DNA of 64,000 nucleotides from a virus (IMGVR_UViG_3300044627_003892), one strand, 5' to 3'. Counted from the first letter of the stretch, positions 6,379 through 55,243 are shown. Program-made: numbers and translations. The notes: generated by a model from the letters alone, not told the origin.

Positions 6379-6761
6379 GGGGGTGTTTCTGGATTTGACA
6401 GGAATGAATTTATTATAAAACGCACGTCGGGGCTAAACTAACCCTGTAAAACTGGTTTAAAACACAAACGGCAACACAATTGCAAAACTTTCTACACTCG
6501 GTTTAATCCGTACTGAAGAAGTAACTGTAGCCTAATCTAAGATTAGTATACAACGGGGTCGGTGAGCATATAACCTTGCAACAGAAGCTTGTACCGTGGT
6601 GTGGTTTCTATCCGAAAAGGAACAAAAACCTTGTTTGTCTGTTACGGAAGGTTAATCTAAACAGAATATTTTGGAATGTTAAGAACTAACATTATCCTAA
6701 ACGTGTAGTGTTTTATCGTAAACATTTTTGGACCTGGGTTCGAAACCCAGCACCTCCACCA
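6379..6761 (+). ncRNA. ssrA: tmRNA
   Basis: 5' GGGGGTG pairs with 3' CACCTCC-A-CCA including G3:U; GATTTGAC D-loop analogue; CTGGGTTCGAAACCCAG T-arm; internal tag ORF 6470-6535. Confidence 0.92.
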
Positions 6762-9252: not shown

Positions 9253-9259
9253 AAAATAG

Positions 9260-9333
9260 TACCCCCGAAGGGATTCGAACCCCTGGCCCACAGATTAGAA
9301 ATCTGTTGCTCTATCCTACTGAGCTACGAAGGC
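9260..9333 (-). tRNA. tRNA-Arg (UCU), CCA not encoded
   Basis: GCCTTCGTAGCTCAGTAGGATAGAGCAACAGATTTCTAATCTGTGGGCCAGGGGTTCGAATCCCTTCGGGGGTA; ACAGA/TCTGT stem around TT-TCT-AA; TATATTTG promoter upstream. Confidence 0.92.
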
Positions 9334-25534: not shown

Positions 25535-27196
25535 TCAAACAATTGGTTTATAAAATTTATGATTTCCGATTGTTGTAGTGTATTTTAATTTGGAATAATC
25601 CCAACTTGGTTTAATTGACGTTGTATGGTAAAATTCAGCACCTTTTGTATTATCAGTACCTTTCTTTTTAATATAATTTTTAACAAGGTTTTGAGCGGTT
25701 TCCCAAGCGGAACCATCCTTAGGGTTTTTTAAAATAGATTTATTTATCTTATTTAAAAAATTATCAGTAGTTGTATCATTCCAAATTGAAAATTGTTTTT
25801 TTTGTAAAACAACATCTTTTGGCGATTTTTTTAGACTATCTGCTCTATTTCTAATAACATTTGCAACTGCTTTCATTCCTTCAGAACCTTCTCCTCTAGC
25901 CTCCCCCCATATGGTTGCGGCAACAATTAAATCATCTTTAGTTAAATTGTCTTTTTCTATTGGTTTTATTGTTTTTACCATTTTCTTAGCGCCGTCAATA
26001 ACACCTTCTTTTGATTTATCACTAGCACCCGTCAACTTGTTAACGTCATCCCAAAAAGTATCTGAGTTTTGATTTTGTTTTATACCCATAATTTTATTCA
26101 CATCATCAAAAACTGATTGTTCGTTAACATTTGGTTTTAAAACCGTCATTGCTTCAGGAAAATCTTTATTTAAAACATCTTCGTCTTTATTATCGTAAGG
26201 AATATTTTGTAAAACGTATCTAATTGAATTTAAACCTGAAATTTTCTTATCATTAGAATCTAAAACAACCCAAGGGTGGTTAACTGTTGATGTCTTATCA
26301 AAAAGTTTTTGTTTATACTCTGTGAACTTTTCCCATACATCTTGCATCTTTTCATCATTCTCAGAATACTTCCAATATTTCAATGGTGACTTTTGTCTGA
26401 AATCAAATCTTTTAGCCTGAGTTTCTTTATCTATTGAGAACCAAAGTTTAAATAGATAATCACCATCAACAACCAATGATTCTTCAAAGTCCTGAACATT
26501 ATCCATAAAGTCCTCATACTCTTCTGAAGAACCGTAACCCATTACAGGTTCAACTAAACCTCTATTATACCAACTTCTATCAAAGAAGTTTATCTTACCT
26601 TTCTCAATTTGATTTCTGTATCTATCCCACCAGTTTTTTCTTTCGTCAGGTGTCGGAATGCCAAGAGCAATAACTTTATAATATCTTGGATTTAAGTTTT
26701 CAGTAAACTTTTTAATTGTTGAACCTTTACCTGCTGAATCTCTCCCTTCAAAAACAATAATAACAGTTTTACCTGTTTGTTTTAACCATTCTTGTAATTT
26801 TAAAAGTTCAACCTGTAAGAAAAATATTTCTTTCTTGTAAATGTCTTTATCTAAAATTGACGGTTCCTCTTCGGGACTAACAACTTCTTTTTTAGTTTTT
26901 CTTTTTTCTAATGACTTAGTTAGTTGTTTAAAAAATTCAAAAACATTAATATCCTTATTACCTTTTAATTTCAAAGTTTTTAAAATACCTCTTGTAAGTA
27001 ATCCAAAATCAACTAACCCTTCTTTTGAATATTCTTCAATCTTATTAATAAATTTTTGAATTTGAGCACTATATACTTTGTTGTCTTTTAAAATTGCAAC
27101 GAGAGATTTAACCTCAGGGCTATACTTTGGTTTGTCAGCTTCTGTCAAACCCATATTATTTTTTATCTTACTAACTTCAGTTAATAAATTCCTCAT
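25535..27196 (-). CDS. ppk2: Polyphosphate kinase 2 fused to a C-terminal SleB/CwlJ-like cell-wall hydrolase
   Basis: FEGRDSAGKG Walker A, FFDRSWYNR, PWVVLDSNDKK; C-terminal IWGEARGE...AVANVIRNR...KQFS...FYH...IGNHKFY. Confidence 0.88.
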   Translation of the reverse strand: MRNLLTEVSKIKNNMGLTEADKPKYSPEVKSLVAILKDNKVYSAQIQKFINKIEEYSKEGLVDFGLLTRGILKTLKLKGNKDINVFEFFKQLTKSLEKRKTKKEVVSPEEEPSILDKDIYKKEIFFLQVELLKLQEWLKQTGKTVIIVFEGRDSAGKGSTIKKFTENLNPRYYKVIALGIPTPDERKNWWDRYRNQIEKGKINFFDRSWYNRGLVEPVMGYGSSEEYEDFMDNVQDFEESLVVDGDYLFKLWFSIDKETQAKRFDFRQKSPLKYWKYSENDEKMQDVWEKFTEYKQKLFDKTSTVNHPWVVLDSNDKKISGLNSIRYVLQNIPYDNKDEDVLNKDFPEAMTVLKPNVNEQSVFDDVNKIMGIKQNQNSDTFWDDVNKLTGASDKSKEGVIDGAKKMVKTIKPIEKDNLTKDDLIVAATIWGEARGEGSEGMKAVANVIRNRADSLKKSPKDVVLQKKQFSIWNDTTTDNFLNKINKSILKNPKDGSAWETAQNLVKNYIKKKGTDNTKGAEFYHTTSIKPSWDYSKLKYTTTIGNHKFYKPIV

Positions 27197-45720: not shown

Positions 45721-46476
45721 TTTTTCTTGATTTTGTCAAAATGTCAGTTGAGTGTCAGATGGGGGATAATCCCCTTGACGGGTTTTAGTCATATTAACAA
45801 CTATAAATATAGTGTATATTATGTATATTGTCCATAGGTAAATGTTCCCACTTTTTACCACTGACGTATGTGTAGTGAGGGTTTTTGGTTATATGAAAAG
45901 TGAAAAAAGTGGTCCTCCTGATAGTGTGAGAAGGGTTTTTTTAACTATATACATTTTCCAGATAAAAATAGGATGTAACAATAAAGTGGCGTGGACAGAC
46001 TTTAGTTGTTTAAATCCTTCAACGAAAAGTGTATTTCATTGTGTCTTCAAGGGGGTTTTTAAGATTTCCCCTTACCATATAGACACATGATATCGACAAT
46101 TATAGTGGTGGTAAAAAGTGGGACATATGTTTCATATCACTATAGTCAGGTTAAACCTGACATAACAGATATGTTTCGTATTGTCCCCTTCACATTCCAC
46201 CATATATTTTATACCCTAACAGGTATACTCATATCATCTTATATACCCTTTAGGGTATTTCATTATCCCGATGGGGTACAATACCATTAACAGTAATATG
46301 TTATGTCCCTTCATAGTGTGTGTCTTTCATTATGGGGAATTATTATAGATTAGTGTTGTACGTTAATTATAGATTCATACAATAGGGGAAATTAGGAAGT
46401 AAATAAAGGAATGGACCCATTAGTGTAATGACCCGAAGGGGAATGGAACGACACGATAGTGGAATGGGGGAATGAG

Positions 46477-46508
46477 TTTGTTTAATTCATAATTTCTTAT
46501 TATATTTG
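46477..46508 (+). promoter_or_regulatory. Bacteroidota sigma-A promoter of the array-bearing gene
   Basis: TTTG(46477-80)-N20-TATATTTG(46501-08), ATG at 46513. Confidence 0.75.
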
Positions 46509-46512
46509 TACT

Positions 46513-47307
46513 ATGGTTATTACAGATAGATTAAAACAAATTATTTTTAAACACCTATATAGAGAGTTAGGTGATTGTGAGATTATTCCTTATAATGGGT
46601 CTATATGGTTCATTAATAGGGATAATAAACATTGGTACTTTGAACTTGATGAGTCAGGTACTTTATGGTGGAGATACGATTTTTTTAATTCGTTTTTTCA
46701 AATATTCTCCATGAGTTCGGATGATTTTTGTCCTGTTCTATCTTCTTGGGTGGAAGAGGTCTTAAATCATAAGGTATCCACAACCCAGGATAGCCTGTGT
46801 AACGTATGTAAACTGGTGGAAGAGGTCTTAAATCATAAGGTATCCACAACCTTCATTCCACTTCCAATTACAACGGACAAGGTGGAAGATGTATTAAATC
46901 ATAAGGTATCCACAACGTGCGATGTTAAAGTTCGTGTTCCTTGGAAGGTGGAAGATGTATTAAGTCATAATGTTAAGGTGTCTACAACTACCATTCTCAA
47001 ATACCCCGAGCATTCATTGGTGGAAAAGGTCTTAAATCATAAGGTATCCACAACCGATTCACTTGATTACGTTGGAAGAATTGAGGTAGAAGAGGTATTA
47101 AATCATAGGGTATCTAGAACCTGCCAAACAAGCGTTTATTGTGATAGGACGGTGGAAGAGGTCTTAAATCATAAGGTATCCACAACGCAGAATTTGAATT
47201 ATGTCGGCCAAGGACTGGTGGAAGATGTATTAAATCATAAGGTATCTACAACGGAATCGTATTTTGGACCCTTCACAAGAGGGGTGGAAGAGGTATTAAA
47301 TCAATAA
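46513..47307 (+). CDS. Array-bearing protein A: conserved ~80-aa N-domain plus 8 units of VEEVLNHKVSTT + 10 variable aa
   Basis: Uninterrupted ORF through a repeat-spacer array; N-domain paralogous to 54010, 54632 and 55230. Confidence 0.85.
   Translation: MVITDRLKQIIFKHLYRELGDCEIIPYNGSIWFINRDNKHWYFELDESGTLWWRYDFFNSFFQIFSMSSDDFCPVLSSWVEEVLNHKVSTTQDSLCNVCKLVEEVLNHKVSTTFIPLPITTDKVEDVLNHKVSTTCDVKVRVPWKVEDVLSHNVKVSTTTILKYPEHSLVEKVLNHKVSTTDSLDYVGRIEVEEVLNHRVSRTCQTSVYCDRTVEEVLNHKVSTTQNLNYVGQGLVEDVLNHKVSTTESYFGPFTRGVEEVLNQ
46749..47303 (+). CRISPR. CRISPR-like repeat-spacer array inside a CDS (8 full repeats + 1 partial, 8 spacers of 30 nt)
   Basis: Repeats start at 46749, 46815, 46881, 46947 (6-nt insertion), 47019, 47085, 47151, 47217, 47283; all spacers unique; no cas genes nearby. 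Confidence 0.6.
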
Positions 47308-47763
47308 TTAGTTATTCTCTAAAGTACCTGTATAGAAATCTAATACCATATCAAAAATATCATCTAATACATCTTTTGGTAGTTCTTCATAAGACATATA
47401 ACTTTCATCTAAAATTTGTGAGTATTTATATCCACCATAATGAAACACTGTAACATCTTCTTTATTTATCATTTCTATTTGTGAAAGTTCACCGTCTTCA
47501 TCCTTGAGGACTATTGGGTTTTCATTCATATCCATTAGTACAATATATTCATCATCGGTTGTTTCTACTACTTCCTTAATAATCTTAATCTTATTGTTTG
47601 TTGTAAGGAACTCATCACCTAACACATTTATAAGGTATTCTATACCACCGAACATTTCTCCTGTCTTTAGTAACCCCGCCTGACTTGCGATAGTTAATAA
47701 CTTCATCTGTTTTACGGTGTATTCTTCCCTTAATATTCTTTTTATGTTTTGTTGTAGGTTCAT
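47308..47763 (-). CDS. Hypothetical protein with MNLQQNIKRILREE leader
   Basis: 151 aa. Confidence 0.7.
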   Translation of the reverse strand: MNLQQNIKRILREEYTVKQMKLLTIASQAGLLKTGEMFGGIEYLINVLGDEFLTTNNKIKIIKEVVETTDDEYIVLMDMNENPIVLKDEDGELSQIEMINKEDVTVFHYGGYKYSQILDESYMSYEELPKDVLDDIFDMVLDFYTGTLENN

Positions 47764-47795
47764 AATATTATAAATATAATTATATTTATTATCAT

Positions 47796-48125
47796 ATGAA
47801 ATATCTTATAACAGAATCACAATTAGATAAAGTAATCTTTAGATATTTGGATATTAAGAACTTTATTCAGATTAAAAGAGGAAACACAATATACTTTGTT
47901 AATTCGGAAGATGATAAATATGCCCAAATCAGATATGATAGAAACGATGGTTGGTGTTATATACGCCATGGATTAATTTACGAAATTTCTTCTTTCTTTT
48001 CTTTGGACATATATGATTCTAAGGAAGTTATCGGTAGATGGGTTGAAAATACTCTACAAATGAGGGTTACTTATACCCGTTTGGTCTTTCACGATGTGAA
48101 CAATTTGTTTAAAATACCTAACTAA
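47796..48125 (+). CDS. Short paralogue of the array-bearing family, MKYLITESQL leader
   Basis: FFSL...WVENTLQMRVTYT + variable + FKIPN. Confidence 0.75.
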   Translation: MKYLITESQLDKVIFRYLDIKNFIQIKRGNTIYFVNSEDDKYAQIRYDRNDGWCYIRHGLIYEISSFFSLDIYDSKEVIGRWVENTLQMRVTYTRLVFHDVNNLFKIPN

Positions 48126-48834
48126 TAGTAATAATCTTCCACTCCCCATTATAATCTTCCACAAGACATGTAGAGTTCTCACAGAAGTCCCCTGAGTTCA
48201 TATAGTAATTCTCTATCTTCGGATGATGAATATGTCCACATACTGCCACATCATACCCCTTCTGTTTTGTTAGACCTTTTGCGTTATCCTCAAAATCAGA
48301 TACAAAGTTAATTGCCCCTTTAACAGATTGCTTTATTGTGTTTGCTAATGAATGATATGGTAAGTTAAACCACTTTCTTATTTTGTTATATAAAGTATTA
48401 AACTTAATCACAATATCATATGACCATCCACCGATTACCGCTAACCACCTCGCTTCCATTATAACGAAATCCAATACATCCCCGTGAAAACAAAAATACT
48501 TTCTATTATCTATTCCTGTATGTATATACTTTCTTACAATCCTGATGTTGTTTAATTTAAATGGAATAAAATCTTTTAGGAAGTCATCGTGGTTTCCTCT
48601 TATATAAACCACCTTTGTATTCTTCTCTGACATCTTCATGAACCTTCTGAATATCTTGGTACAATCCTTTGTCCATTTACCATTACCTTTAAGAGCCCAA
48701 CCATCTATTATATCACCGTTCAGTATTAGTTTTTCCGTTGTGTTATTATCCAAGAAACTTATTATCTTATCTGTCTGTGATTGTCTTGCTCCTAAGTGTA
48801 AATCACTCATGATTATCGTTTTCCAATTATTCAT
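48118..48834 (-). CDS. Metallophosphoesterase, LpxH-like (UDP-2,3-diacylglucosamine hydrolase family)
   Basis: SDLHLG, LNGDIIDG, RGNHD, FHGD, CGHIH, NSGD. Confidence 0.85.
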   Translation of the reverse strand: MNNWKTIIMSDLHLGARQSQTDKIISFLDNNTTEKLILNGDIIDGWALKGNGKWTKDCTKIFRRFMKMSEKNTKVVYIRGNHDDFLKDFIPFKLNNIRIVRKYIHTGIDNRKYFCFHGDVLDFVIMEARWLAVIGGWSYDIVIKFNTLYNKIRKWFNLPYHSLANTIKQSVKGAINFVSDFEDNAKGLTKQKGYDVAVCGHIHHPKIENYYMNSGDFCENSTCLVEDYNGEWKIITIS

Positions 48835-49538
48835 TCCCAGTATCCTTTATCATCCTCAAAATGATTTTTATTGTTCCTGTTGAAGAATGAACTAACCATA
48901 AGTTTTAACATATACCACACTCCTTTCTGTTTGAACCTTCTTGGACTTGTGAATACCGTTGTATTCATGATATAAAACTTGCTTGGTTTAACTTGTTTGG
49001 AGAATAGATAATCCTCGGCAACTCTTGCGTTTTCATCAAACCCACCGATTGTATCATATACTTCTTTCTTAACCATCATGAACCCACCAAGACAAAATGG
49101 TGTGATTGGTTTGAATACCTTTTGTATTGTGTCAAACAATCTGAATATACTATTATACTCACCTGTCGTTGACCTTACCTTACATGTAATCAAATCTGTA
49201 TTATGTAATAAGAACTCCCATATACAATTGTTTAATATGTTGAAATCCAATAAGAATATGTCAGCGTCCAAAAATAGAACATAAGGTGTTTCCACATTCT
49301 CTGCTCCCTTATTTCTTGCAACAGACGGAAGTCCTCCTGAAATAATCTGTAGATTAAAATAATCTGTTCTCCTATTTTCCAAAGAATAGGATGTATAATC
49401 ATCATCCGATGAATCACAAACAATAACTCTAACATCTTGTATTCCCTTTTGAAAGTTTAATAAGGACAACGTTTGTTCTATTATCTTGCCCTCGTTCTTA
49501 CAAGGGATTACTATGGTTAAAAACTTTGATAAATCCAT
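48831..49538 (-). CDS. Family 2 glycosyltransferase
   Basis: TIVIPCKNE, VCDSSDD, ARNKGA, FLDAD, GGFDE, EDY; start moved to 49538. Confidence 0.88.
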   Translation of the reverse strand: MDLSKFLTIVIPCKNEGKIIEQTLSLLNFQKGIQDVRVIVCDSSDDDYTSYSLENRRTDYFNLQIISGGLPSVARNKGAENVETPYVLFLDADIFLLDFNILNNCIWEFLLHNTDLITCKVRSTTGEYNSIFRLFDTIQKVFKPITPFCLGGFMMVKKEVYDTIGGFDENARVAEDYLFSKQVKPSKFYIMNTTVFTSPRRFKQKGVWYMLKLMVSSFFNRNNKNHFEDDKGYWE

Positions 49539-49646
49539 AATAATAACTATTAAAAACAACCTCAAACCATATTATCATATTCTTATTAAATTATTAACCC
49601 AATATGTATTGTTCAATTTTATGTGTATCTTTGTATTTATTATAAT

Positions 49647-49964
49647 ATGAAGATTGAGCATAAGGTTAAAGCAATTGTAAAACTAATTAATACATTATAC
49701 TCTCCTGACGAGATTAAAGTTAGAAAGAGTGAGTTTGATGATGAGATGTTAATTGATGTTTACGTTTCTCATATTGATGACTCATATATAACCAACCCTT
49801 ACCATTATAATCTTAATAAACTAAAGGAATTAAATTTAGAACGTGAGATTAGAAGGGCGATAAAGGATTTTTTGAGTATTAAAACAAGCGGACTTAATCC
49901 ATACACAGGTTTCGCCCCGTATGCTGTTCACGGCATAACAATAGATGTAAGATTAATATTATGA
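49647..49964 (+). CDS. Hypothetical protein
   Basis: Start moved to 49647; overlapping TATCTTTG and TATTTAT motifs upstream. Confidence 0.65.
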   Translation: MKIEHKVKAIVKLINTLYSPDEIKVRKSEFDDEMLIDVYVSHIDDSYITNPYHYNLNKLKELNLEREIRRAIKDFLSIKTSGLNPYTGFAPYAVHGITIDVRLIL

Positions 49965-50314
49965 AATACCTTATAACAGAATCAAAATTAGAGAAAGTAA
50001 TCTTTAAGTATCTTGATATTCAGGACTTTGTGATATATGACAACAAGAAGAGATTCAGCAATTATATATATTTCTTAAACAGTGAGTCAGATAGGGAATC
50101 ACAGATTAGTGTTTATACTAACAACGCCTTTGGTGAAGTTAGGAATTGGATATTTGTAAATCGTGATTTGACTGATAAATTATCTACCTTATTCCCCATT
50201 GGTAAATCGGATTGTTTGGATATAATCAAAGAATGGGTTAATAATACTTTGGGTATTAGTGATAGTACGATTTGGGATGGTCCATATGATTACAGATTAG
50301 CGGTTACAGATTAA
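49961..50314 (+). CDS. Short paralogue (MKYLITESKL...WVNNTL)
   Basis: Aligns by eye with 47796 and 51297. Confidence 0.7.
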   Translation: MKYLITESKLEKVIFKYLDIQDFVIYDNKKRFSNYIYFLNSESDRESQISVYTNNAFGEVRNWIFVNRDLTDKLSTLFPIGKSDCLDIIKEWVNNTLGISDSTIWDGPYDYRLAVTD

Positions 50315-50327
50315 TAGTTAACGAAGA

Positions 50328-50606
50328 ATGAAATACTTAATTACAGAATCACAGTTAGAATCATTTTTACTTAGAAGGTTTACAATGGATGAATTGGAAT
50401 CACTTAGGGATGATTATAACTACATTATGGATGAAGAAGATTTTGAAGATTCCGCCGACAGAGATGATTACGCTTATGAATTAATTGAAAAGTTCATTGA
50501 TAGACATAGAGGTGAAGAGTTTTTTCAATATGATGATGATACTGAATTCTATGATAAACGTTCCAAATATATTGGAGCATTACTCAAATTCTTAAACTCT
50601 AATTAA
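50328..50606 (+). CDS. Acidic hypothetical protein with MKYLITESQL leader
   Basis: 92 aa. Confidence 0.7.
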   Translation: MKYLITESQLESFLLRRFTMDELESLRDDYNYIMDEEDFEDSADRDDYAYELIEKFIDRHRGEEFFQYDDDTEFYDKRSKYIGALLKFLNSN

Positions 50607-50609
50607 TCT

Positions 50610-50939
50610 TTAGAAACCTTTTCTTTCATTATACATCCGTGTAATTCTTTTTCTATAATGATTTTCTAACCCTTGGTGTATATCATCATACCAAAATTCA
50701 TCTTCAGGTAATGTGCTAACAAATCTCCAATGTACCCCATCCATCATAAAGGTTATTGTTGTGTAGACTAACTCATCTAAAAAATGTGAACTTAAAACCT
50801 TTCTGTCTTTTGTAAGACGATAAGCACCTTCAAAAGATTCAAGAAACTCATTTTCCATTTCATCATTAGAAAGTCTTCTTTTAATTCTCGCTGATAGTTC
50901 TTCCCTCAGTATTCTTTTTATAGATTCTTTTAAGTTCAT
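50610..50939 (-). CDS. Hypothetical protein with MNLKESIKRILREE leader
   Basis: 109 aa; similar to the N-part of 52434. Confidence 0.7.
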   Translation of the reverse strand: MNLKESIKRILREELSARIKRRLSNDEMENEFLESFEGAYRLTKDRKVLSSHFLDELVYTTITFMMDGVHWRFVSTLPEDEFWYDDIHQGLENHYRKRITRMYNERKGF

Positions 50940-50972
50940 ATTATTATAAATATGATTATATTTATATTCTAT

Positions 50973-51293
50973 ATGAAATATCTTATCACCGAATCACAAT
51001 TAGATAAAGCCAAATCGGTAATAAATAATTTAATGATATCTGAGTTAAATAATATATTAGATTATGATAGAACATCAGATAGTGATTTCATTAATATATA
51101 TAGCCAGGAAAGAGGCCCTGATTTTTTTATTTTAATGGAGTTTGACCATAGTGATGGTAGATTATTTATTGATGAATCTTTTTTAGATAAGTTTTCATCC
51201 ATGTATCCACTTGATAAAGAACAATCAGGTAAATTCATTTCTGATTGGTTTAGTAAAGTATTTGATGTTGATGTTATGTTTTTTGAATATTAA
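50973..51293 (+). CDS. Hypothetical protein with MKYLITESQL leader
   Basis: Start moved to 50973. Confidence 0.7.
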   Translation: MKYLITESQLDKAKSVINNLMISELNNILDYDRTSDSDFINIYSQERGPDFFILMEFDHSDGRLFIDESFLDKFSSMYPLDKEQSGKFISDWFSKVFDVDVMFFEY

Positions 51294-51296
51294 TAT

Positions 51297-51626
51297 ATGA
51301 AATACCTTATCACCGAATCACAATTAGACAGAGTAATCTTTAGATATTTGGATATTAAGAACTTTATTCAGATTAAAAAGGGTGCAACTATATTTTTAGT
51401 TAATTTAGAAGATGATGAATACGCTGAGATTAGATATGATAAAATTAGTGGATGGTGTTACATTGTTAATAGTTTAATTAATGAAGTGGCCTCTTTCTTT
51501 TCTTTGGGTATCTCCGATTCCATGGAACTTATCCGTAGATGGGTTGAAAATACCCTCAAAGTAATAGTTGTACAAGTCCGTGGGGCTAAACCCGCACCGA
51601 ATGTATGGATAAGAGTAAATAACTAA
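51297..51626 (+). CDS. Short paralogue of the array-bearing family
   Basis: Close paralogue of 47796 (VIFRYLDIKNFIQIK...WVENTL). Confidence 0.75.
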   Translation: MKYLITESQLDRVIFRYLDIKNFIQIKKGATIFLVNLEDDEYAEIRYDKISGWCYIVNSLINEVASFFSLGISDSMELIRRWVENTLKVIVVQVRGAKPAPNVWIRVNN

Positions 51627-51634
51627 TATAATAT

Positions 51635-52045
51635 ATGAAATACATAATCACTGAGAATCAATATAGCAAAACTCTTAAACCCTTATTAGAGAAATTTGGT
51701 ATGCGTACTCTGTGTAAAATGACTGATAAGGAACCTGAAGATATTATTGATGAGATTGGTCTTAAAGGAACAAGAGAAGATATTATCTTTCTAACAAAAA
51801 CTATACTTGAAAATGATATCTCAACCGTCTTGATGTATTGTAGTTATAATATCATACCCACTCGTGACTCTATGAACTTGGTCGTCTACATACCTAAGCC
51901 AGCTCCTGCAAATGTGGGAAGGTATATCTATGAGGAAGGTACAAGAAGTATGTATAGAGATGTTATTTCTAAGGCTTTATATCAATTGGGTGGTGGTCTA
52001 ATTAGAGTTCACAATATTGAGGTTTATAATACAGGAAATTGTTAA
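51635..52045 (+). CDS. Hypothetical protein with MKYIITENQ leader
   Basis: 136 aa. Confidence 0.7.
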   Translation: MKYIITENQYSKTLKPLLEKFGMRTLCKMTDKEPEDIIDEIGLKGTREDIIFLTKTILENDISTVLMYCSYNIIPTRDSMNLVVYIPKPAPANVGRYIYEEGTRSMYRDVISKALYQLGGGLIRVHNIEVYNTGNC

Positions 52046-52061
52046 CTTATATTTATATATA

Positions 52062-52418
52062 ATGAAATATCTTATCACCGAATCAAAATTAAAAACATTC
52101 ATTAAAAACAAGTTTAATATTGACCTGACAGGTCGTGTGGAATTTGAACCTGATTCATATGAATTATTGGTTTATTTTGATAACTATCTTACTCAAGATA
52201 GTTTAGCAAGAAGACGGAGAATGGATAACTATGGTCCGATATATTTTATAGAATTAGATAATGGAAATAAAATATTTTATCAAATGAATTATAGTTCAGA
52301 CAGTCCTTTAATTCTTAGTAACGAAGGTGCTCAATATACTGAATCACAATTTATGAATTTACTTGGTATCTCAGGTCTTGGAATATCAATTGAACAATTT
52401 CTTGATTTATACGTATAA
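52062..52418 (+). CDS. Hypothetical protein with MKYLITESKL leader
   Basis: Start moved to 52062. Confidence 0.7.
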   Translation: MKYLITESKLKTFIKNKFNIDLTGRVEFEPDSYELLVYFDNYLTQDSLARRRRMDNYGPIYFIELDNGNKIFYQMNYSSDSPLILSNEGAQYTESQFMNLLGISGLGISIEQFLDLYV

Positions 52419-52433
52419 GATACTTAATCACTA

Positions 52434-53234
52434 TTAGATTAACGTACCAACATATCCTAATGCATCCCAATGACTCTTTCCTTTTGGTGTCTTAGTTGCA
52501 CCCGCTACCACATCTAATCCTCTTGCTTTCGATGGACCTGTAATAACATGTGATGATGGAACTCCTTTACCTACCGCAGACTGAACTGAACTTGATGTAT
52601 TCTTAGATATAGCGTAAGGTTCTACTATGAATAACTTACTTTTGTTTTTAATAAGAGAAGCAACTTTAGATGAGTATGAACATCCTGCACTGAATAATAC
52701 AACTGTCGCGTTAGGATTTTGTATGATTGCGGTTTCAATCTTATCAAATTGATTATATCTATATCCTATAACATTTTTCTTTGAACTATTACTTTTAAGT
52801 AAGTTTATTTGTTCACCTATGTTTAAGTCTCCCTTTCTATAATCTAATCCACCCATTAATATAACATCAACAATTGGAGCTTTAGAATCTTTTTTATCAT
52901 CAGACTCCGTTGATTCGTATATGACATCAACACATTCTTTATTATAAAACCTTTCTAAGTCATCCCTCATGTAGTTTTCTACATACGTAACACCATCTTT
53001 ATATTTTAACCACTCAGACAACGGACCATCGGTATCAGAACCATCTGTAATCATGTCCATAATTTCATGTTGTATACCACGCATGAATGCTTCAAAGTTT
53101 TCAAAATCACATGGATAATTAGTTACATTGTTATCCCATACAAACGATTTAAATCTATTCAATCTTCTTTTGAACTTTGGTGAAAAATCTGTTTCTTCCC
53201 TTAATACTTTTTTTATATTCTCTTGTAGGTTCAT
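52434..53234 (-). CDS. MNLQE-leader protein with possible minimal alpha/beta-hydrolase C-domain
   Basis: VILMGG...VLFSAG elbow-like motif (weak). Confidence 0.55.
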   Translation of the reverse strand: MNLQENIKKVLREETDFSPKFKRRLNRFKSFVWDNNVTNYPCDFENFEAFMRGIQHEIMDMITDGSDTDGPLSEWLKYKDGVTYVENYMRDDLERFYNKECVDVIYESTESDDKKDSKAPIVDVILMGGLDYRKGDLNIGEQINLLKSNSSKKNVIGYRYNQFDKIETAIIQNPNATVVLFSAGCSYSSKVASLIKNKSKLFIVEPYAISKNTSSSVQSAVGKGVPSSHVITGPSKARGLDVVAGATKTPKGKSHWDALGYVGTLI

Positions 53235-53266
53235 AATATTATAAATATAATTATATTTATTATTAC

Positions 53267-53638
53267 ATGAAGTATATTATTACCGAGTCACAACATAAAT
53301 TAATATCCGAACTTGAAAGAACTTGGAGAGATTCTGAATATACGGAACAATACAATAGACTAAAACCTAAAATGATTCGTTATTTTGAAAATTTGGTTGA
53401 TTCACATTCTGAAAATGATGTAAGACTTAACTTATTTGATAGTGACCAAAACGCCGTAATGGTTTATAATAAACCAAGTGGTGATTTATACTATAATAGG
53501 AACTTTGACGATATATATGGTACAGCCTTTCCTCATCCCATTTGGTTAGTTCACGGCAAATTCATTATGTCAGATGTATTTAATGAGTTCTTTCCTGACT
53601 ACGAAGTTAAATCAGTTAGAAGTATAACATTATCATGA
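53267..53638 (+). CDS. Hypothetical protein with MKYIITESQ leader
   Basis: 123 aa. Confidence 0.7.
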   Translation: MKYIITESQHKLISELERTWRDSEYTEQYNRLKPKMIRYFENLVDSHSENDVRLNLFDSDQNAVMVYNKPSGDLYYNRNFDDIYGTAFPHPIWLVHGKFIMSDVFNEFFPDYEVKSVRSITLS

Positions 53639-53973
53639 AATATTTAATCACAGAATCACAATTAGATAAAGCAATACTCAAGTTTCTTGATAGTCAGGAT
53701 TTTAATATAACTAAAATTGGTGCCAGTACATATATTTCATACCCTGAAGATGATTTTGCTCAGATTAAATATGGTGGTAATCATTCCAATAATGAATTGT
53801 GTTTTATCTATAAAGGTTTAATTGAAGCAATTTCTTCCTTCTTTTCTCTTAACAGTTATCAATCCACCAGAATTGTTGGGCAATGGGTTAAGAAAAAACT
53901 GAATTTGGAGGGTCAAATGTCCAACAAGATAATGAGCTCCCAATGGTCGTTAAAATTACCAACTGAAGATTAA
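53635..53973 (+). CDS. Short paralogue of the array-bearing family
   Basis: ISSFFSL...WVKKKL...LKLPT. Confidence 0.7.
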   Translation: MKYLITESQLDKAILKFLDSQDFNITKIGASTYISYPEDDFAQIKYGGNHSNNELCFIYKGLIEAISSFFSLNSYQSTRIVGQWVKKKLNLEGQMSNKIMSSQWSLKLPTED

Positions 53974-54004
53974 TTTGTATTTTCAAAGTTTTTTTGTATC
54001 TTTG
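53974..54004 (+). promoter_or_regulatory. Bacteroidota sigma-A promoter of the three-gene array operon
   Basis: TTTG(53974-77)-N19-TATCTTTG(53997-54004), ATG at 54010. Confidence 0.75.
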
Positions 54005-54009
54005 TGCTT

Positions 54010-54648
54010 ATGGTTACAGATAAGCTAAAACAACTCATATTCAAACACCTATACAAAGAGTTAGGTAATGTGGAGATAATCCCGTATAAAGACTCTGTAT
54101 GGTTCATTGATAGGGAAAATTGTTATTGGTATTTTCAGTTGTCTAAAGATGGATGTTTATTTTGGAGATACTCATTCTTCCCATCGTTTTTCAGTATTTT
54201 CTCTTTGGAGCAAAGTGAGTTTGAACCAATAATATCTTCTTGGGTGGAAGAGGTATTAAATCATAAGGTATCCACGACAGGTAATAAGCTCGGTTACTTC
54301 TCGCGAAAGGTGGAAGAGGTATTAAATCATAAGGTATCCACAACAAAAATGTTTGTAATTGACGAATTTCCTCTGGTGGAAGAGGTATTAAATCATAAGG
54401 TATCCACAACTGAAGAGAAAACTACTGTAACAGCAAAGTGGGTGGAAGAGGTCTTAAATCATAAGGTATCCGAAACTTTTGAAGTAGACGCCGCCCAAAA
54501 AAGAAAGGTAAAAAAAGTATTAGATAGTAGGGTATCAACAACTAAAAATAATTCCTTATTTTCCGAAAGGTCAGTGGAAGAAGTATTAAATAGTGCTTGG
54601 GTGAAAAAGGCATTAAACAATAAAAAAGAAAATGAAAGTAACGGATAG
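54010..54648 (+). CDS. Array-bearing protein B (5 units)
   Basis: Same N-domain; VEEVLNHKVSTT repeats. Confidence 0.85.
   Translation: MVTDKLKQLIFKHLYKELGNVEIIPYKDSVWFIDRENCYWYFQLSKDGCLFWRYSFFPSFFSIFSLEQSEFEPIISSWVEEVLNHKVSTTGNKLGYFSRKVEEVLNHKVSTTKMFVIDEFPLVEEVLNHKVSTTEEKTTVTAKWVEEVLNHKVSETFEVDAAQKRKVKKVLDSRVSTTKNNSLFSERSVEEVLNSAWVKKALNNKKENESNG
54243..54591 (+). CRISPR. CRISPR-like array in CDS (5 full repeats + 1 partial, 5 spacers of 30 nt)
   Basis: Repeats at 54243, 54309, 54375, 54441, 54507, 54573; degeneracy increases toward the 3' end. Confidence 0.6.
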
Positions 54649-55243
54649 ATTAAGACAACTCATATTCAAACAACTATACAAAGAATTAGGTAATGTGGAA
54701 ATTATCCCTACCCAATACAGTTATTGGTTTATTAATAGAGAAGAAAAATACTGGTATTTCCAACTAACTGAAAGTGGATGTTTATATTGGAGATATGATT
54801 ATTTCAAATCTTTCTTTTCTTTTTTCTCTTTGGAGTCCAAAGATTTTGAACCAATTATTTCATCTTGGGTGGAAGAGGTATTGAATAGTAAAGTATCCAC
54901 AACAATTGTGCAGATGCATCATAAGAAGGATTCGGTGGAAGAGGTATTGAATAGTAAGGTATCCACAACTCAGCAATTCAGTTTCACTTCGAATGATATG
55001 ATGGAAGAGGTATTGAATAGTAAGGTATCCACAACTGCAGGAAAGGCAGGAACTGTAACCATTGCGGTGGAACAGGTATTGAATCGTAAGGTATCCAAAA
55101 CAGTCCGTGACGTAGGTGAAGGAAACTTTTTGGTGGAAGATATATTGAATCGTAAGGTATCCAAAACGGAAGAATTCATCTCAAGAAGAGCGGAATCGGT
55201 ATATGAGGCATTAAACAACAAAAAAGAAAATGAAAGTAACTGA
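54632..55243 (+). CDS. Array-bearing protein C (5 units)
   Basis: VEEVLN(S/R)KVS(T/K)T repeats. Confidence 0.85.
   Translation: MKVTDRLRQLIFKQLYKELGNVEIIPTQYSYWFINREEKYWYFQLTESGCLYWRYDYFKSFFSFFSLESKDFEPIISSWVEEVLNSKVSTTIVQMHHKKDSVEEVLNSKVSTTQQFSFTSNDMMEEVLNSKVSTTAGKAGTVTIAVEQVLNRKVSKTVRDVGEGNFLVEDILNRKVSKTEEFISRRAESVYEALNNKKENESN
54868..55215 (+). CRISPR. CRISPR-like array in CDS (5 full repeats + 1 partial, 5 spacers of 30 nt)
   Basis: Repeats at 54868, 54934, 55000, 55066, 55132, 55198; gene-specific variant GGTGGAAGAGGTATTGAATAGTAAGGTATCCACAAC. Confidence 0.6.

Follow-up and report, generated by a model that had tools for sequence, protein, structure and literature searches.

In-frame repeat-spacer arrays in protein genes of a lake phage are very probably extended with 30-bp chromosome fragments of a freshwater Bacteroidota genus

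We report that the spacers separating the repeats of an array inside a protein gene of a lake phage are very probably 30-bp chromosome fragments from an uncultured genus of freshwater Bacteroidota, which were added CRISPR-style at one end of an array that still codes for protein. The window referred to below is the whole stretch of DNA that was analysed, i.e. 64,000 nt of the virus IMGVR_UViG_3300044627_003892.

Gene 46513 and its paralogues

The window has a GC content of 30.6% and a phage-like gene content, including a ClpB-like ATPase, a fusion of PPK2 with a cell-wall hydrolase, and many small paralogous ORFs. The fusion is one 553-aa ORF on the minus strand (25535–27196), in which a polyphosphate kinase 2 domain is joined to a cell-wall hydrolase domain. 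ARAGORN detected a tmRNA-like gene (tag AKLSTLGLIRTEEVTVA) and a tRNA-Arg(TCT), at 6379–6761 and 9259–9333, respectively. Two large families of small paralogues display the stereotyped N-termini MNLQ..I.R.LRE... and MKYLITESQ..., with members at 47308–47763 and 56018–57068 on the minus strand and at 47796–48125, 49961–50314, and 53267–53973 on the plus strand. The MKYLITESQ... family ends in WVENTL... (e.g. 47796–48125), the counterpart of WVEEVL in the array repeat.

Gene 46513 encodes an N-domain that runs in frame into a repeat-spacer array (A1). Three paralogues, 54004, 54632, and 55230, are built in the same way, and the four arrays hold 25 spacers in total:

46513–47307, plus strand: gene 46513, 264 aa, N-domain followed by the in-frame array A1 (from the ORF list and the register table)
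46513–46748, plus strand: N-domain coding sequence, 79 residues, which also occupies the array "leader" position; GC 29.7%
46749–46784, plus strand: first of nine repeat copies, 36 nt, GGTGGAAGAGGTMTTAAATCATAAGGTATCCACAAC (from pattern matches)
54243–54648, plus strand: array A2 of paralogue 54004, 5 spacers, weak matches only (26/30 for spacer 54279)
54868–55243, plus strand: array A3 of paralogue 54632, 5 spacers
55466–55964, plus strand: array A4 of paralogue 55230, 7 spacers

The N-domain ends with ...TTG immediately 5' of the first repeat. This repeat begins at codon position 3, its first base supplying the wobble base of the last codon before it. Further A1 repeats start at 46815, 46881, 46947, 47019, 47085, 47151, and 47217, while the last copy (47283–47307) is truncated and carries the stop codon. 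Each 66-nt unit is translated into VEEVLNHKVSTT plus 10 variable residues, and the eight spacers of A1 are each exactly 30 nt long. The repeat copy at 46947–46988 is a 42-nt variant with a frame-preserving 6-nt insert; it is kept at the same array position in related phages, and is therefore old and tolerated. In a lake metatranscriptome library, a contig of 151 nt links 46946 directly to 47217, passing from spacer A1.3 to the repeat that precedes A1.8 and leaving out 270 nt (four units); it represents a relative's shorter array, and as the library may contain DNA, it is no proof of transcription.

Comparison of the gene 46513 protein with Pfam returned no family at significance, blastn against 50,697 GenBank phages gave no match, and an Rfam scan of 46400–47400 yielded chance snoRNA matches but no CRISPR-DR family. 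A scan for the A1 repeat recovered 13 IMG/VR loci on about 10 contigs.

Sources and composition of the spacers

The first spacer, A1.1, matches the ribosomal protein gene rplM at 30/30 in a lake contig (L029, Ga0315908_10016207), at 29/30 in a second one (L030), and at 29/29 in the genomes G424 and G425. The two A1.1-matching contigs from the lake-metagenome scan have 41–42% GC and carry no flanking repeats. In L030, an 86-kb contig, rplM lies with rpsI, rpsB, and tsf, together with queA, truB, and sdhAB, and the contig is therefore bacterial chromosome. Its S2 protein was compared with a 401-genome Bacteroidota sample (best 88% identity, G097), leading to a family of 236 species genomes; MAGs with identical or related S2 proteins are labelled "Bacteroidota bacterium" or "Flavobacteriales bacterium" at NCBI.

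Searching positions 46749–55964 of the window against the 236 family genomes gave about two dozen matches at E <= 1e-5, all but one of which lie on spacer coordinates. This query contains its own control, as the non-spacer 92% of its 9.2 kb produced a single match at this threshold, whereas the spacers (750 nt) produced about two dozen. The sole non-spacer match is a homologous metallophosphoesterase gene. Within the phage LpxH-like metallophosphoesterase gene, 39 nt (48578–48616) are 90% identical to a genome of the host family (G597), a likeness that suggests gene exchange with the G597 lineage. All matches on spacer coordinates fall in a single genus of 27 species (G417–G443) with genomes of 1.6–2.8 Mb. 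This genus is almost certainly the host of the phage, an identification that rests on the spacer matches themselves. The A1 spacers were compared with five genomes of the genus, with every candidate scored, and then in whole-genus searches:

46785–46814, plus strand: A1.1, copy of rplM (ribosomal protein L13), antisense; youngest spacer, unique to this phage
46851–46880, plus strand: A1.2, copy of a Zn-dependent phospholipase-C-like gene, sense, off frame
46917–46946, plus strand: A1.3, diverged match to a SIS-domain gene, 27/30 to G501:C21 (other genus, same family)
46989–47018, plus strand: A1.4, diverged match to a GH92 glycosidase gene, 27/30 to G430:C269
47055–47084, plus strand: A1.5, antisense match to a TonB-dependent receptor gene, 26/30 (24/26 core)
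47121–47150, plus strand: A1.6, unique to this phage, composition host-like
47187–47216, plus strand: A1.7, tentative antisense match to an ftsX-like gene, 25/30 to G436:C7
47253–47282, plus strand: A1.8, most distal spacer, GC 14/30

The second spacer is likewise an exact copy (30/30, or 31/31 including one flanking base, at G438:C15:4130-4160), with 27–29/30 in 20 further species of the host genus. A1.4 is found at 26/29 in G425, G422, and G421. A1.5 is probably an old copy from the TonB-dependent receptor gene, as judged from matches of 26/30 at orthologous sites in G440, G433, G420, and G421 and a weaker one (23/26) in G439. A1.7 may tentatively be taken as an old copy from the ftsX-like gene, its 25/30 match being borderline. 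The tentative A1.7 protospacer (L048, G436:C7:2946-2994 versus window 47189–47237) is followed by 21 nt of which 15 agree with the beginning of the phage repeat; the flanks of the other protospacers show no such resemblance, and this likeness is probably due to chance, although a repeat-like flank could also bias capture. For A1.8, no match was found in the genome searches of the host genus and family, and A1.6 gave none in the host genus, the family, IMG/VR, or the related phages. In the other arrays, spacers 54970 and 55036 of A3 match a DUF5916 gene and secA, respectively, each at 29/30, and A4 spacer 55568 matches a Glu/Leu dehydrogenase gene at 29/30, with 27/30 for A4 spacer 55502 and 26/30 to an M28 peptidase gene for A4 spacer 55898. 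Matches with four mismatches (A2.1, A3.5, and A4.3) were counted as tentative; in the case of A3.5, the host version has a stop in the phage frame.

Taken over all phages, 25 of the 75 distinct spacer clusters have a protospacer at <=3 mismatches in the genus, six of them at 0 and five at 1. The genes concerned include rplM, secA, gdh, GH92, DUF5916, and other scattered chromosomal housekeeping-type genes. Spacers in the arrays of relatives match the same genus, several first-position spacers exactly. The spacers were also searched against the window itself, the fetched related loci, and five related phage genomes (133–241 kb), which gave chance-level matches only, the best phage-genome match of any spacer being 22/26 for A1.6 at G002:196626 (E 0.12). 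The original prediction had noted, from a non-exhaustive search by eye, no obvious match elsewhere in the window.

Could the sequence have moved the other way, from phage to bacterial genes, or could the matches be assembly chimeras? We consider either explanation vanishingly improbable, and nothing was found in favour of it. The protospacers are situated in conserved genes that recur at the orthologous positions of as many as 21 species in the genus, with 0–3 mismatches, and their bacterial flanks lack the repeat; this conservation of the protospacer genes across species refutes both explanations. A1 was, moreover, present with 96% of the sampled words in 14 lake-water DNA runs of 14 studies (2020–2024), assembled identically, in addition to the roughly 10 IMG/VR contigs. 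The array is therefore no assembly artefact, and it has been stable over years.

The composition of the spacers is in line with these sources. It had been predicted from the sequence that the eight A1 spacers are compositionally foreign, with 101 G+C in 240 nt (42.1%) as against 58 in 180 (32%) at 46561–46740 of the same gene and a CG dinucleotide in each of them; the counts were reproduced exactly, and CG is present in 8/8. As a null we used 13,464 30-mers taken in frame from 57 other ORFs in the window (mean GC 31.1%, sd 8.7%). The mean GC of the eight spacers was reached in 3e-4 of resamples, and that of all 25 spacers (300/750, 40.0%; z = 5.1) in 0/100,000. Individual A1 spacers, with 11–14 G+C, lie at only about the 75th–95th percentile of phage 30-mers, and the GC signal is therefore collective and not one of single spacers. 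Set against random 30-mers of phage coding sequence, single spacers fall within the distribution and the mean of the full set does not (z 5.1).

The GC excess cannot be put down to amino-acid content, as it is largest at the synonymous codon position 3: the values at positions 1/2/3 are 0.46/0.38/0.36 for the spacers versus 0.41/0.30/0.22 for phage CDS. An equal excess (37–45% GC) is found in 158 spacers of related phages. The fetched host loci (103 kb) have 41.5% GC. Stop-free 30-mers average 43.0% GC in the host and 31.8% in the phage, compared with 41.6% for the 75 distinct spacers (z −1.5 versus host, +8.9 versus phage). The presence of CG in all eight A1 spacers is explained by its frequency in the host, where 81% of stop-free 30-mers contain it, versus 38% in the phage. 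Very probably, then, the higher GC content of the spacers reflects their origin, as 30-bp pieces of the host chromosome and not as phage sequence.

A second-order Markov classifier separating host from phage (AUC 0.90) was used as well. The 53 unmatched spacer clusters (41.4% GC) score well away from phage (z +9.8) and, to a lesser degree, below host (z −3.6), and the latter fits old host fragments that drift to phage composition. A1.6 taken singly has a log-likelihood ratio at the 94th percentile of phage 30-mers.

These data also bear on whether the spacers derive mainly from competing phages or other mobile elements, as is the case for most CRISPR arrays carried by viruses, with the host matches as a minority. 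Two thirds of the clusters are without an identified source, and phage arrays targeting other phages are known (PMC7162821). On the other hand, every identified protospacer is in a chromosomal housekeeping-type gene, the unmatched spacers have the GC content and Markov score of the host, and exact 26-mers of seven spacers (A1.1, A1.5, A1.6, A1.7, A3.1, and two first-position spacers of relatives) occur in IMG/VR in arrays only. We regard a mainly mobile origin as quite unlikely, while a minority of spacers may come from other sources. According to the original prediction, the DNA had been captured from the host, another element, or some such source of higher GC content. For the host, this is supported by two 30/30 copies of bacterial genes and four matches at 25–27/30, with source loci of 40–44% GC; for another element, the scan of seven spacers in IMG/VR lends no support.

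Unit turnover and coding capacity of the arrays

All 158–195 spacers in the window and its relatives are exactly 30 nt long, and related phages differ by whole 66-bp units, each consisting of a 36-bp repeat and a 30-bp host fragment. In orthologous arrays the distal spacers are common, whereas the N-domain-proximal ones differ: A1.1 is found in this phage alone, and in A3 and A4 the two or three most distal units are common to most or all related phages. The matches to the host follow the same polarity: 48% of the clusters in the proximal fifth are matched, compared with 17% at the distal end, the share of matches with <=1 mismatch goes from 29% to 0%, and match quality declines with position (Spearman p 0.03). 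Orthologous arrays also differ internally in some places, and unit loss or recombination is therefore needed besides polar gain.

With respect to orientation, 13 protospacers are antisense and 12 sense, five of the latter being in the frame of the host gene. The use of both strands and any frame looks like capture at the DNA level without selection for RNA targeting. Two pyrimidines at −3 and −2, on the N-domain-facing side, are found in 17/25 protospacers versus a background of 0.266; this motif is weak and was noticed post hoc, after 22 protospacers, and its p value of 1.8e-5 is that before correction for about 112 tests. The next three protospacers, which were fetched after the motif had been noticed, all carry it (3/3).

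The arrays are coding sequence. None of the 66 distinct spacers contains an in-frame stop (0/75 after re-clustering), compared with 19–37/66 in the other frames. Between copies of the same spacer in different phages we counted 31 substitutions, 18 synonymous, 13 non-synonymous, and none giving a stop, where the expected synonymous share is 0.22 (p 1.4e-5); 19/31 are at codon position 3, and the dN/dS-like ratio is 0.22. It is from the stop-free arrays and the mostly synonymous variants that we conclude that the arrays are coding, and the latter further imply that the captured fragments are conserved as peptide and not merely kept open. After capture, the encoded decapeptide is under purifying selection.

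An array that is in frame, stop-free, and under purifying selection might be taken for an ordinary protein tandem repeat, the linkers of which are GC-rich owing to amino-acid content or relaxed codon use, without any capture of DNA, the more so as the repeat corresponds to the C-terminal element of an abundant small-protein family in the window (WVENTL..., 47796–48125). Such a reading is highly improbable. It is at odds with two 30/30 and many 27–29/30 matches, which involve bacterial genes unrelated to one another, both strands and any frame, and could not result from the divergence of a repeat, with the GC excess being largest at codon position 3, and with the gain and loss of whole 66-nt blocks carrying unrelated inserts, the spacers being mutually unrelated (75 clusters). 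For the matched spacers, the exact protospacers refute it.

A different possibility is that the arrays supply guide RNAs, which are processed from the transcripts, loaded into a host effector (Cas13b or Cas9), and either directed against host genes or used to titrate the effector, with translation being incidental or only protecting the transcript. The geometry of 36-nt repeats and 30-nt spacers would suit this, as would the antisense orientation of A1.1 to the rplM mRNA and a weak hairpin (GUGGA/UCCAC plus an inner stem, −6.5 kcal/mol, z −1.4), and cas-less arrays of huge phages with spacers matching host transcription and translation genes are on record (PMC7162821). However, the protospacers show no strand bias, which argues that RNA targeting is not selected, and selection acts on the peptide, without an in-frame stop in any spacer. 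Moreover, no 36/30 array was found in the 236 family genomes, and the Rfam search gave no CRISPR-DR match. We hold guide-RNA function to be unlikely.

Candidate inserting machinery and related systems

Cas1 is absent from the five related phage records, which are 52–82% complete. Among the 27 species genomes of the host genus, it is encoded in one, G429, in a type II-C locus (L067 8403–14122, G429:C13), the sole CRISPR-Cas locus detected in this genus. It comprises cas9-cas1-cas2 and an array in which 30-nt spacers separate 11 repeats, each 47 nt long; these spacers gave no match to the related phages. Read from leader to array, the G429 repeat is GGTG...TTCACAAC, and the leader ends with TTG. 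Compared with the phage arrangement (TTG/GGTG...CCACAAC), both repeat ends (GGTG and CACAAC) and the TTG leader junction are alike, whereas the repeats differ in length (47 versus 36 nt), their interiors are unrelated, and the G429 array is non-coding. The G429 leader has a T-run 50–60 nt before the junction, and a like T-run is formed by the Phe-rich codons upstream of each phage array.

No repeat-like sequence was detected in the host genomes searched. Arrays of 36/30 geometry with GKTG...ACAAC ends were found in none of the 236 family genomes, a negative tempered by the frequent loss of arrays from MAGs. A search of 185,579 species genomes for the 3' 12-mer of the repeat, a 30-nt gap, and the 5' 7-mer gave 15 single matches, which is the number expected by chance, and no array.

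We propose, as a possibility that we would rate somewhat below even, that spacer capture of the CRISPR type serves here as a means of protein diversification, in which a host integrase writes 30-bp host fragments into a coding repeat of the phage and selection keeps those that can be read through. The units would be inserted in trans by the Cas1-Cas2 of the host, the putative enzyme in this scheme, and the phage repeat would mimic the ends of the host II-C repeat together with the leader-repeat junction. YYN on the leader-facing side of the protospacer would represent the acquisition motif. As observed, only stop-free fragments are retained in the reading frame of the phage, and once captured they slowly diverge from their source.

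A precedent for filling in trans is provided by the type VI-B (Cas13b) arrays of Flavobacterium columnare, which lack their own Cas1, have 36-bp repeats, and are filled by the Cas1-Cas2 of a type II-C system (Hoikkala et al., 2021, PMC8092290). The two systems of F. columnare share a leader-distal GTTGT, the PAM end faces the leader, and many VI-B spacers derive from the bacterium's own genome (PMC8092290). In other species, II-C repeats are about 11 bp longer than VI-B repeats (PMC8092290). The phage arrays resemble those of VI-B in their 36-bp repeat, their 30-nt spacers, the lack of cas1/cas2 of their own, and transcription from leader to array. Compared by description, the repeat end ...CACAAC (coding strand) fits the leader-distal GTTGT, and the flanking motif is on the leader-facing side in both. 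Many spacers of both come from a bacterial genome, the bacterium's own in F. columnare and that of the host in the phage. Unlike VI-B arrays, those described here are phage-borne and lie inside an ORF, the 5' end of the repeat is GGTG instead of GTTG, and the motif is YYN adjoining the protospacer instead of TTTANNNNN, which was not seen upstream of the protospacers.

Huge phages are known to carry compact cas-less arrays, some spacers of which match the host chromosome (Al-Shayeb et al., 2020, PMC7162821). The present arrays are similar in being phage-borne and short (5–9 repeats), in the lack of Cas1/Cas2 in the related records, and in spacers matching the likely host, including its translation genes. 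They differ in that each forms the in-frame 3' part of a protein gene and is under purifying selection as protein; furthermore, no similar repeat occurs in the host genomes searched, and no strand preference exists. With CRISPR arrays in general they have in common repeats and spacers of constant length, protospacers elsewhere, and polarised turnover, but instead of being a non-coding RNA locus, each array makes up the 3' portion of an ORF.

In diversity-generating retroelements (DGRs), a reverse transcriptase rewrites a single segment derived from a template. The phage arrays are comparable to phage DGRs in that a short hypervariable coding segment of a phage protein is renewed by a dedicated nucleic-acid mechanism. 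In the arrays, unrelated host fragments are added as new units instead, and a reverse transcriptase and a template repeat have no part in it.

Cas-less phage arrays matching the host (PMC7162821) and the filling of arrays in trans (PMC8092290) are thus already on record, while full-text literature searches retrieved no description of a CRISPR-like array that is itself coding sequence. What began as a compositional oddity has become direct evidence for the extension of a phage protein gene by host chromosome fragments, and a likely host can now be named for a family of lake jumbo phages that is abundant and uncultured. The result also shows that unit insertion in the manner of CRISPR can operate on a coding repeat, and that the inserted host fragments are later conserved as peptide. 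If the proposed scheme is true, a growing set of host-derived decapeptides would be displayed between constant 12-residue modules, which would constitute a new way of generating protein variability and at the same time a heritable record of the hosts of the phage. Should a host integrase indeed be at work, the virus would exploit the CRISPR adaptation machinery to remodel its own proteins, a new category both of CRISPR use and of protein diversification.
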